Below, piece after piece: positions 12,452 to 26,766 of a stretch of 64,000 nucleotides of DNA; position 1 is the stretch's first letter, and each line of letters opens with the position of its first letter. This DNA comes from Eledone cirrhosa. Lineage: Eukaryota. The stretch covers positions 434,001-498,000 of the forward strand of contig OZ024743.1 in NCBI GenBank assembly GCA_964016885.1. Reading direction: 5' to 3'. The notes below the pieces were generated by a model that had not been told where the DNA came from, ran no database searches, and worked only from the letters and a program-made list of their open reading frames with translations. Both the position numbers and the translations under genes were made by a program.

Positions 12452-13159
12452 ATATTTCGTTTCTGAATTTGTTTAGCAAGATTCTTTATCTGAAATCGTG
12501 TGTTGAAACCGATATTGTTATACTTTGGGAGGGTCATGTTGCCAATAAGAAACACACGCACCAGTTGCTTTCACTTCAATTTAATTTAATATATATTTAT
12601 AAATTTACAAATTTATAAATTTCTGGTTGGTTGGTTGGTTCCACAACCAGATAGTTGTTTATATATATATAGTCATAGTTCTTTCGTCACACACTCTGTG
12701 ACCTCTTCAGTGACTGGGGATTTCTTTCTTCGTTTCTGTGCCTTTCCTTTCTTCTATCCTACGCCATTTTGTTTGTGTGTGGGTTGCGTGCTCAGTTTGC
12801 GCATGCGCCACATCCGGGTGTCTGTGTGTGTTTGTGTTCATTTTTCTATTTTTCTATTTATATTTGTTTGTTTATTTATTTATTTATTGTTGGTTGGTTG
12901 TTTGTTCTATGTGTGTGTGTGTTTTCATTTTGTCTTGTGTGTGTTTTCATTTTGTGTGTGTTTTCAATTGTAAGTTGTTTGTTCTATGTGTGTGTGTGTT
13001 TTCATTTTGTCCTTAATTGTAAGTTGTGATGTTGCTGTTCCACTCATATTTTCTATTTAATTTTGGTTGTAATTCTTTTATGCTTACTGCCTCTGTAATT
13101 TGCCTAAACATTGCGTCTTTCTTGTGTGTGGATTCTATTTTTATTTCTATGCTCTCTAA
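12452..13159 (-). repeat. PLE 3' pseudo-LTR
   Basis: Matches 16724-17431. One difference seen (13069 vs 17341). Confidence 0.9.
12671..12715 (-). ncRNA. Minimal type I hammerhead ribozyme in the PLE pLTR
   Basis: AGUCA-CUGAAGA-G-GUCAC(AGAGUGU)GUGAC-GAAA-GAAC-UA-UGACU. Stem I AGUCA/UGACU, minimal stem III. Confidence 0.8.
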
Positions 13160-24800: not shown

Positions 24801-26766
24801 TACATACTAGTATTTCAGTATACATATATGGATGTACATCTTTAACTTAATTGTTTAAGCGTCAGTCATACAAAAGTGAGTTACAAACGAAACGAAATTT
24901 AATTTCGTTTCGTTATTTGTTTTTATCGTCTCCGTTGAACCGGTACTTACTCACACTCTATGCAAATTAGTCTGCCCACTACTAATTTTCATAGAAAAAG
25001 CATATAACGATATGTGCTTTTACGATTCTCTAGAGAGGCCGGAAGATAGGTAAATATTGCTGATGAGTTGTAACAACAACGAAACTAGTTCAATATTCCT
25101 TGTCTGGCTTTCTGGAGAATAGAGGAAAGGTGTTTCCTCAAAAACCAGTATGACTCTAAAAACCGGTTTGTCTGTGTGTTTACATACAGAATAGCTGGCC
25201 ACTCACAGTAAAGTGACCAGTGAAAAAACTTGGTACATCTACATATGTATACGTGTGTGTATTCATATACATACTAGTATTTCAGTATACATATATGGAT
25301 GTACATCTTTAACTTAATTGTTTAAGCGTCAGTCATACAAAAGTGAGTTACAAACGAAACGAAATTTAATTTCGTTTCGTTATTTGTTTTTATCGTCTCC
25401 GTTGAACCGGTACTTACTCACACTCTATGCAAATTAGTCTGCCCACTACTAATTTTCATAGAAAAAGCATATAACGATATGTGCTTTTACGATTCTCTAG
25501 AGAGGCCGGAAGATAGGTAAATATTGCTGATGAGTTGTAACAACAACGAAACTAGTTCAATATTCCTTGTCTGGCTTTCTGGAGAATAGAGGAAAGGTGT
25601 TTCCTCAAAAACCAGTATGACTCTAAAAACCGGTTTGTCTGTGTGTTTACATACAGAATAGCTGGCCACTCACAGTAAAGTGACCAGTGAAAAAACTTGG
25701 TACATCTACATATGTATACGTGTGTGTATTCATATACATACTAGTATTTCAGTATACATATATGGATGTACATCTTTAACTTAATTGTTTAAGCGTCAGT
25801 CATACAAAAGTGAGTTACAAACGAAACGAAATTTAATTTCGTTTCGTTATTTGTTTTTATCGTCTCCGTTGAACCGGTACTTACTCACACTCTATGCAAA
25901 TTAGTCTGCCCACTACTAATTTTCATAGAAAAAGCATATAACGATATGTGCTTTTACGATTCTCTAGAGAGGCCGGAAGATAGGTAAATATTGCTGATGA
26001 GTTGTAACAACAACGAAACTAGTTCAATATTCCTTGTCTGGCTTTCTGGAGAATAGAGGAAAGGTGTTTCCTCAAAAACCAGTATGACTCTAAAAACCGG
26101 TTTGTCTGTGTGTTTACATACAGAATAGCTGGCCACTCACAGTAAAGTGACCAGTGAAAAAACTTGGTACATCTACATATGTATACGTGTGTGTATTCAT
26201 ATACATACTAGTATTTCAGTATACATATATGGATGTACATCTTTAACTTAATTGTTTAAGCGTCAGTCATACAAAAGTGAGTTACAAACGAAACGAAATT
26301 TAATTTCGTTTCGTTATTTGTTTTTATCGTCTCCGTTGAACCGGTACTTACTCACACTCTATGCAAATTAGTCTGCCCACTACTAATTTTCATAGAAAAA
26401 GCATATAACGATATGTGCTTTTACGATTCTCTAGAGAGGCCGGAAGATAGGTAAATATTGCTGATGAGTTGTAACAACAACGAAACTAGTTCAATATTCC
26501 TTGTCTGGCTTTCTGGAGAATAGAGGAAAGGTGTTTCCTCAAAAACCAGTATGACTCTAAAAACCGGTTTGTCTGTGTGTTTACATACAGAATAGCTGGC
26601 CACTCACAGTAAAGTGACCAGTGAAAAAACTTGGTACATCTACATATGTATACGTGTGTGTATTCATATACATACTAGTATTTCAGTATACATATATGGA
26701 TGTACATCTTTAACTTAATTATATATATATATATATACACATACATTATTCTATTTATGTAATATA

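Follow-up and report, generated by a model that had tools for sequence, protein, structure and literature searches.

The window analysed here, a stretch of 64,000 nucleotides of the 3.0 Gb genome of Eledone cirrhosa (GCA_964016885.1, contig OZ024743.1, forward strand 434,001-498,000), contains a Penelope-like element (PLE), designated family A, and an array of short tandem units located 2.7 kb apart. Both consist of a long and a short arm placed head-to-head, and all four 3' ends abut (TA)n tracts (Table 1); this layout was recognised in the initial annotation, and it holds beyond the window.

Table 1. Features of the PLE and of the retrozyme array, in window coordinates.
Feature	Position	Strand	Description or basis
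(TA)n target tract left of PLE	12360..12455	.	sequence
PLE family A long arm	12452..17431	-	partial tandem, 1.17 units of 4272 bp
PLE hammerhead, distal pLTR copy	12671..12715	-	structural scan
PLE C-terminal ORF piece, 919 aa	13013..15772	-	RT (YVDD), CX4CX2C linker, GIY-YIG-type endonuclease (VVY..YIGET)
PLE N-terminal ORF piece, 384 aa	15688..16842	-	ATG at 16809
PLE hammerhead, proximal pLTR copy	16943..16987	-	structural scan; predicted cut before 16947
PLE short inverted arm	17431..18024	+	matches neighbouring minus-arm stretch at 100%
(TA)n target tract right of PLE	18021..18220	.	sequence
(TA)n target tract left of array	20746..20774	.	sequence
Retrozyme short arm, 1.73 units, two hammerheads	20772..21581	-	810 bp, 100% identical to units
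Retrozyme long arm, 11.0 units of 467 bp	21581..26720	+	sequence self-comparison
First long-arm retrozyme hammerhead	21784..21828	+	predicted cut before 21822; recurs each 467 bp
(TA)n target tract right of array	26721..26738	.	sequence

Self-comparison of the window revealed a 708-bp direct repeat in the PLE long arm, with one mismatch and a period of 4272. The 3' end of this arm lies at a position designated site 2, 224 nt past the hammerhead cut, and includes the tail; the short arm, which ends at site 1, 164 nt past the cut, is devoid of the tail, has a hammerhead of its own (17821-17865) and meets the long arm at 17431 with a 1-nt overlap. Type I hammerhead cores were located by a structural scan at 12710 (-), 16982 (-) and 17826 (+), each in the sense of its own arm. 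The reading frame is split into the 384-aa and 919-aa pieces, in two frames, by a frameshift within a low-complexity Asn/Thr-rich linker, and the window copy is not itself intact. The endonuclease part of the 919-aa piece contains two Cys and two His (CCHH motif); this motif and the CX2-5CxxC linker, named as in PMC8557442, were read by eye from the translation, and the RVT_1 match of the piece (E = 0.00037) was below the cut-off. Among named proteins, the closest is a hypothetical protein of Octopus vulgaris (69%). The arrangement of an RT followed by a C-terminal GIY-YIG domain, encoded by one uninterrupted frame of 1278-1279 aa in sister copies, is that of EN+ PLEs, and the element also possesses a pLTR hammerhead, tandem and inverted insertion and an optional tail. 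It does not match the Naiad PLEs, which have an N-terminal endonuclease and lack a canonical hammerhead, as its endonuclease is C-terminal and a hammerhead is present.

The short arm of the array ends at site 2 of its own unit (position 303, with the tail) and the long arm at site 1 (position 229, without the tail), and the two arms overlap by 1 nt at the head-to-head junction at 21581. Units of the long arm differ by three mismatches only, all within the sixth unit, and one of the changes, at 24131, affects the hammerhead core of this unit; the cores at 21105 (-) and 21572 (-) and those of 10 of the 11 plus-strand units are intact (12 of 13 in total). An Rfam search at the gathering threshold gave no matches for the window hammerheads, although the structural scan detects them. 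The array has a GC content of 35% and contains no ORF of at least 100 aa. Its similarity to the window PLE is limited to weak matches (best blastn E = 0.11), in line with the earlier reading that the two share no sequence beyond the hammerhead fold. With its tandem non-coding units, one type I hammerhead in each, low GC and many dispersed copies, the array is a non-LTR retrozyme.

Other features of the window include a LINE-like reverse transcriptase fragment at 18465-19290 (-), between the PLE and the array, which we take to be RTE-like, and two long frames of 668 and 543 aa at 41387-44934 (-), belonging to a LINE with AP-endonuclease-like and RT motifs. An inverted repeat (about 180 bp) centred on a (TA)n tract is located at 8164-8520. 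A short repeat (1950-2396, 8522-8619 and 63043-63199) is always flanked by (TA)n and also lies beside many other loci examined; it is possibly another TA-targeting non-autonomous element. A dispersed SINE-like repeat of about 190-230 bp occurs at 1301-1491, 5453-5648, 6700-7084, 26726-26960, 51662-51889 and 55660-55872, and the copy at 26726-26960 directly follows the right TA tract of the array.

Insertion structure of the retrozyme and PLE families

The retrozyme hammerhead has 4,739 exact matches genome-wide. Families were sought by exact sequence patterns, positions in the unit were counted from the predicted hammerhead cut, and the census took in each of the 27 distinct loci found in the first 100 matches of the listing (contig C1, first 58 Mb), which corresponds to about one locus per 2 Mb. 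In these loci, 47 of 48 3' ends fall at position 228-234 (site 1) or 301-304 (site 2), about 70 nt apart, and the tail is 69 nt long. A (TA)n tract, defined as a stretch of 8 nt or more of alternating TA no farther than 16 nt from the end, adjoins 41 of the 48 ends, versus 4.4% of background positions; the other seven include three degenerate AT tracts, one (ATT)n and three unrelated sequences, and as exceptions to the target L171 lies on (CAT)n and L031 on (ATT)n. All 21 two-armed loci are head-to-head, four of them carrying a stub of 13-24 nt as an arm, and 19 of the 20 typable ones use one site per arm (p = 2e-5), as does the window array (ends 303 and 229); the exceptions are L046, with site 1 on both arms, and L007, with one off-site end. 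Six extra loci from a separate listing brought three more pairs with one site on each arm, two loci with a single arm and one lying on (CAT)n. Target-site duplications, which exceed 4 bp in non-LTR retrozymes when they occur, would be masked within the (TA)n tracts. Within a locus, the arms are 0-1.4% apart (16 loci, excluding the mis-phased L046), versus means of 2.4-5.4% between loci; both arms thus carry the same alleles, which points to a single event from a single template.

Among 51 5' ends of the arrays, none lies within 5 nt of the cut, and a weak enrichment 10-27 nt past the cut (7/51, p = 0.04) was one of several looks. Several long arms contain nearly a whole number of units (window 21581/26720; L041; L040; L046), the 5' end falling in phase with one of the 3' sites, as though synthesis often halted at the start region. 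In the minus arm of L043/L044, and in that arm only, a unit variant recurs with a period of three (absent, present, present), a pattern that one monomer circle fails to account for and that points to multimer templates or to amplification at a later time. A variant subfamily with a compensatory change in hammerhead stem II (L172, L173) forms a 31-unit array with one short inverted arm (G000:C1:5738326-5752444). A second, older family (L161-L169, e.g., G000:C1:43052140-43052711), with a unit of about 434 bp, 62-69% alike to the 467-bp family, has its ends on (TA)n at the two homologous positions and its arms head-to-head as well, with a tail of 51 rather than 69 nt. Different families repeatedly occupy one common TA tract. 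A 497-base contig covering one whole unit, from runs X4-X6, which have few contigs, was kept out of the evidence.

The retrozyme hammerhead has a stem I of 7 bp, a stem II of 4-5 bp and a stem III of 2 bp with a palindromic loop; this form is described in PMC4209133 as being active when paired in tandem and quiet in circles of one monomer. The stems covary: with the variant subfamily and the second family included, seven of 14 pairs are changed on both sides over 6 distinct sequences, a count that is not a probability, since the compared sequences are related. The circular fold predicted for the unit is more stable than those of shuffled sequences (z = -9.8 against 40 shuffles, 66% paired). 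A hairpin in the array tail was supported (z -2.2 to -3.2); a hairpin spanning the PLE tail was not (z -0.2 to -1.3). A KRN-like reading frame across the array tail, seen by eye, was rejected because family B differs there, yet ends at the identical place. No PLE with a retrozyme-type hammerhead loop was present among the first 100 of 7,712 matches to a pattern that was meant to exclude the array hammerhead but still matched it; only the two retrozyme families were found there.

The family A hammerhead has 4,602 exact matches genome-wide, and opposite-strand neighbours less than 5 kb apart are minus-then-plus in 14 of 14 cases among the 100 matches listed. The sample studied included the first 30 listed matches, 20 further stretches and 20 more (some of non-A families), picked partly for pairs or tandems and blind to end type. 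The 3' ends lie on (TA)n at 164 and 224 nt past the cut, within the first 30 codons, and one end of each kind occurs in 28 of 30 loci with both ends typed (p = 4e-7), the exceptions being L076 and C1526; loci with a single end typed (L057, C10, C6b, L245-L247, L250) were dropped from the count. The arms are 0-1.6% apart in 16 loci, matching the retrozyme range, so the ages of the two groups overlap. Full-length units also form near-identical tandems (0 mismatches over 7.3 kb at C10). The RT has 131 scored matches with 98-100% identity; many of them belong to open frames 1276-1281 aa long, and the five frames checked are uninterrupted over 1267-1268 aa, with the same start as the window copy; a trans-mobilisation assay would therefore not need the repaired ORF that the initial annotation had called for.

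None of the 62 family A 5' ends lies at the cut (within 5 nt), and 19 of them cluster 85-105 nt before it, which is probably the transcript start; words near this cluster resemble what we take to be NRF1 and YY1 sites. In 10 of 24 two-armed loci both 5' ends lie within 12 nt of each other, and seven of these ten junctions share one hot spot 90-104 nt before the cut. Short insertions with two arms of 240-330 bp (L053, L064, L114, L117, L120-L122) have both 5' ends in the same 90-104 nt interval and are likely copies of short pLTR-initiated transcripts.

Three further PLE families were distinguished. Family B (L135, L138, L139, L143, L145, L153, L177-L196; 66% aa identity to A) is represented by 5,160 exact hammerhead matches; its first codons and its two end sites are those of A, and stem I of its hammerhead is weak. 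Family D (L207-L227) shows about 25% aa identity to A, frames of up to 887 aa and copies 96-99% alike; its ends on (TA)n fall at two sites separated by 42 nt, six of six two-armed loci have one of each, and the core of its hammerhead-like motif deviates from CUGANGA. Family C (L197-L206, L228-L230) has 796-aa frames, mostly 92-97% alike, preceded by a conserved TGA and an upstream frame, and a long TA/TG-rich 3' region; a search for its insertion ends did not reveal any. A fifth PLE-like fragment, GC-rich and with a C-terminal GIY-YIG domain, lies at L165:5000-6700. Since families B and D show the same signature, it marks PLE machinery rather than one family.

Proposed mobilising partner and mode of insertion

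The array shares with the PLEs two fixed ends, the (TA)n target and head-to-head arms (the PLE 'tail' signature), which makes a PLE RT/GIY-YIG machine very likely the mobiliser. The insertions have paired ends, a constant polarity and target, one template per locus, a conserved ribozyme and ages overlapping those of family A. This fingerprint ties the retrozymes to PLE machinery with high confidence, and the array, a hammerhead-bearing non-coding tandem element, was probably copied in trans by a Penelope-like RT/endonuclease. The initial annotation had proposed the array as non-autonomous cargo of such a machine, a proposal at risk from unit copies lying away from (TA)n and inversions or having ages apart from those of active PLEs; the copies elsewhere lie on (TA)n, head-to-head, and cover an age range equal to that of a PLE whose ORFs are uninterrupted.

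The identity of the partner is less clear, and family A is a tentative first choice, with D somewhat unlikely, B more so and another family the least expected. No significant match was found between the retrozyme and the pLTRs of A, B and D, family C being compared by its 3' parts only. The best match of the array to a family A end (18/21 nt, antisense strand) was reached in 9 of 2000 shuffles and is equalled by an unrelated part of the PLE. An in-register match between the array and family D at site 1 (TTAACT..TTTA) has p = 0.004, as one of 12 tests, and is not repeated in the second retrozyme family; TATCGT across site 2 is common to the array and family A. These hints conflict, and both TATCGT and TTAACT..TTTA fail controls. 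It is doubtful that the window family A in particular is the partner and recognises the hammerhead, as the initial annotation had it. Family A does share the target and the one-of-each rule, overlaps in age, has many uninterrupted ORFs and the common TATCGT, and is mildly clustered with arrays within 50 kb (6/27 loci versus 1.8 expected, p = 0.01), but B clusters similarly (5/27, p = 0.03), and the ends of D (TTTA at site 1; TTAT followed by C at site 2) resemble those of the array more than the ends of A do. A family A hammerhead lies less than 5 kb from an array in 1 of 27 loci versus 0.18 expected (p = 0.16); the two families are equally young, and the closeness of the window copies is not significant. 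The notion that hammerhead-processed ends are recognised is not supported by the positions of the ends: neither the 5' ends counted above nor any 3' end coincides with the cut, the priming sites of the array and of family A lie 160-300 nt downstream of it, and the hammerhead sequences of the two differ. Besides, hammerhead mutants are inserted all the same in vitro (PMC11167929).

We infer circular templates, paired priming by a dimer, rolling synthesis and end joining. Hammerheads acting in pairs would cut read-through array transcripts, and the resulting pieces would close as stable 467-nt circles; a PLE protein, probably as a dimer, would bind the region 230-300 nt past the cut rather than the ribozyme and break both strands of (TA)n. 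Each DNA end would then prime reverse transcription, one at site 1 and the other at site 2, helped by an AT match of 2-5 nt, and each cDNA may circle the RNA several times before the two cDNAs are joined end to end, with homology slight or absent, yielding head-to-head arms; the failure of one cDNA would leave a single arm or a 13-24-nt stub. Part of the growth of arrays likely occurs after insertion. Perhaps such priming is obligatorily paired, one dimer gripping two sites on one RNA and priming both ends of the break, and circular ribozyme RNAs without recognisable homology mimic this platform and enter from both ends; we hold this stricter version to be possible rather than probable. Paired priming on one RNA would account for the tail and the inverted arm together. 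In the in vitro work described in PMC11167929, a PLE protein cuts and extends both strands, starting at two internal sites that bound the tail, a dimer is predicted and hammerhead-dead RNA is still inserted. Both strands use both sites there across the population, as could also be the case if each single event followed a one-of-each rule; every site in the present genome matches TA by a few bases, whereas the start site in that work is not homologous to the target (PMC11167929). Priming on both sides of one (TA)n break, as the initial annotation suggested, has strong statistical support, and its mechanism is what we infer. Arm identity could partly come from gene conversion in a palindrome.

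A PLE might also prime once, the cDNA end folding back to copy itself and the endonuclease resolving the hairpin at the other site. We consider this unlikely. The 10 of 24 family A junctions with coincident 5' ends are near-perfect palindromes and the two arms are nearly identical; self-priming was proposed for head-to-head Penelope palindromes (PMC3846280) and endonuclease-mediated resolution for the tail (PMC8557442). The hot spot shared by seven of these ten junctions is, however, explained by a common transcript start, and fold-back does not agree with the longer arm ending at either site (site 2 in the window PLE, site 1 in the window array), with array junction offsets scattered across the unit, or with unit-specific variants not mirrored over the junction in L043/44, L032 and L037; moreover, reverse transcription starts at each of the two tail boundaries in vitro (PMC11167929). 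A base common to the PLE short arm and the proximal repeat was dropped as evidence for fold-back, because it is the common allele (106 versus 26, overlaps included).

An origin without PLEs, by LINE-type twin priming, a satellite process at the DNA level or the repair of breaks in fragile (TA)n palindromes, is strongly disfavoured and appears very improbable. LINE-like ORFs do occur in the window, and L1 twin priming yields head-to-head inversions (PMC2837659). The period-three variant indicates some amplification at the DNA level. Twin priming by L1 is expected to leave one fixed end, one variable end and non-overlapping arms, whereas here both ends are fixed and the arms overlap. DNA-level processes leave unexplained the two conserved sites in two retrozyme families, the uniform polarity of 21 loci and the spacing of about one locus per 2 Mb. 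That the inversions are long-read fold-back artefacts of assembly is extremely improbable: palindromes and tandem arrays are known assembly hazards (PMC8557442) and none of the listed contigs of the short-read run X1 spans the window's own junction, but the fixed site at which an arm stops and the unique sequence flanking it differ between the two arms, and the X1 contigs contain 12 head-to-head joints at single-copy depth, with TA loose ends at site 1 and site 2 alike, which shows that the structure does not stem from long reads. Because X1 is possibly the assembled sample itself, this is a check on technique and not on a second animal; the unit counts of arrays may be inexact.

Relation to known elements and significance

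Judged by motifs and architecture rather than by an RT tree, the window PLE would be of the Neptune/Nematis type. It resembles the EN+ PLEs described by Craig et al. (2021, PMC8557442) in the single ORF with RT followed by GIY-YIG, the CX4CX2C linker, the pLTR hammerhead, partial tandems, an inverted 5'-truncated copy, a tail at one end and (TA)n; it differs in the tail length (58-60 versus 30-40 nt) and in the ORF of about 1270 aa with a variable Asn/Thr-rich linker. The presence of the tail on one arm is presented qualitatively in that account and is counted here. The Anolis Poseidon element PAc, in the in vitro study of Frangieh et al. (2024, PMC11167929), similarly has two internal tail-bounding RT starts in the opening part of the ORF, cutting and extension of both strands, an AT-rich target and a dispensable hammerhead; unlike the present case, the account concerns the protein's own templates and RNA without homology to the target. 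Chlamys non-autonomous elements such as MRC1 are likewise non-coding PLE dependants with multicopy head-to-tail insertions, but their 3' ends resemble those of autonomous partners and they belong with a clade without canonical hammerheads (PMC8557442).

Like the metazoan non-LTR retrozymes published by Cervera and de la Pena (2020, PMC7229834) and by Li, Clavereau and Pollet (bioRxiv), the present family is made of non-coding units in tandem, each with a single type I hammerhead, has a low GC content (35% here), ranges from dispersed monomers to multimers and co-exists with PLEs. Fixed ends, a microsatellite target and inverted arms, present here, are absent from the passages of those accounts that were compared, and 'inverted' has no occurrences in the main text of PMC7229834. 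The unit of 467 bp exceeds the 170-400 nt given in PMC7229834 and is within the 51-972 bp of bioRxiv 10.64898/2026.07.22.740005. PLEs were proposed as retrozyme mobilisers in these two papers, as presented there from co-occurrence, shared hammerheads and, in Xenopus, pLTR homology; this homology, found in 24 of 57 Xenopus retrozyme families, is not a universal feature of the class and was undetected here against A, B and D. The tandem and inverted structure of PLEs, the one-end tail and the (TA)n bias are also known (PMC8557442, PMC3846280). PLE-type ends or inverted arms of retrozymes, the one-end-of-each rule and these cephalopod families were not found in the literature searched, which was largely open-access main text. 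The idea of mobilisation itself is already in print, and what the present analysis contributes is the counted insertion-structure evidence and the one-end-of-each rule.

The mover of animal hammerhead satellites has so far been argued from co-occurrence and partial homology only, and the origin of PLE tails and inverted arms is called undefined in published accounts; thousands of young insertions provide a countable footprint for both. This footprint names RNA positions 229-234 and 303 and three candidate enzymes (A, B and D), and the one-end-of-each rule constrains models of PLE integration. If paired priming is the true reading, the rule should extend to newt, mussel and coral retrozymes, and, if a PLE protein does insert a circular RNA unrelated to it into (TA)n by copying from either end, this would define a minimal cis signal for RNA-templated insertion.
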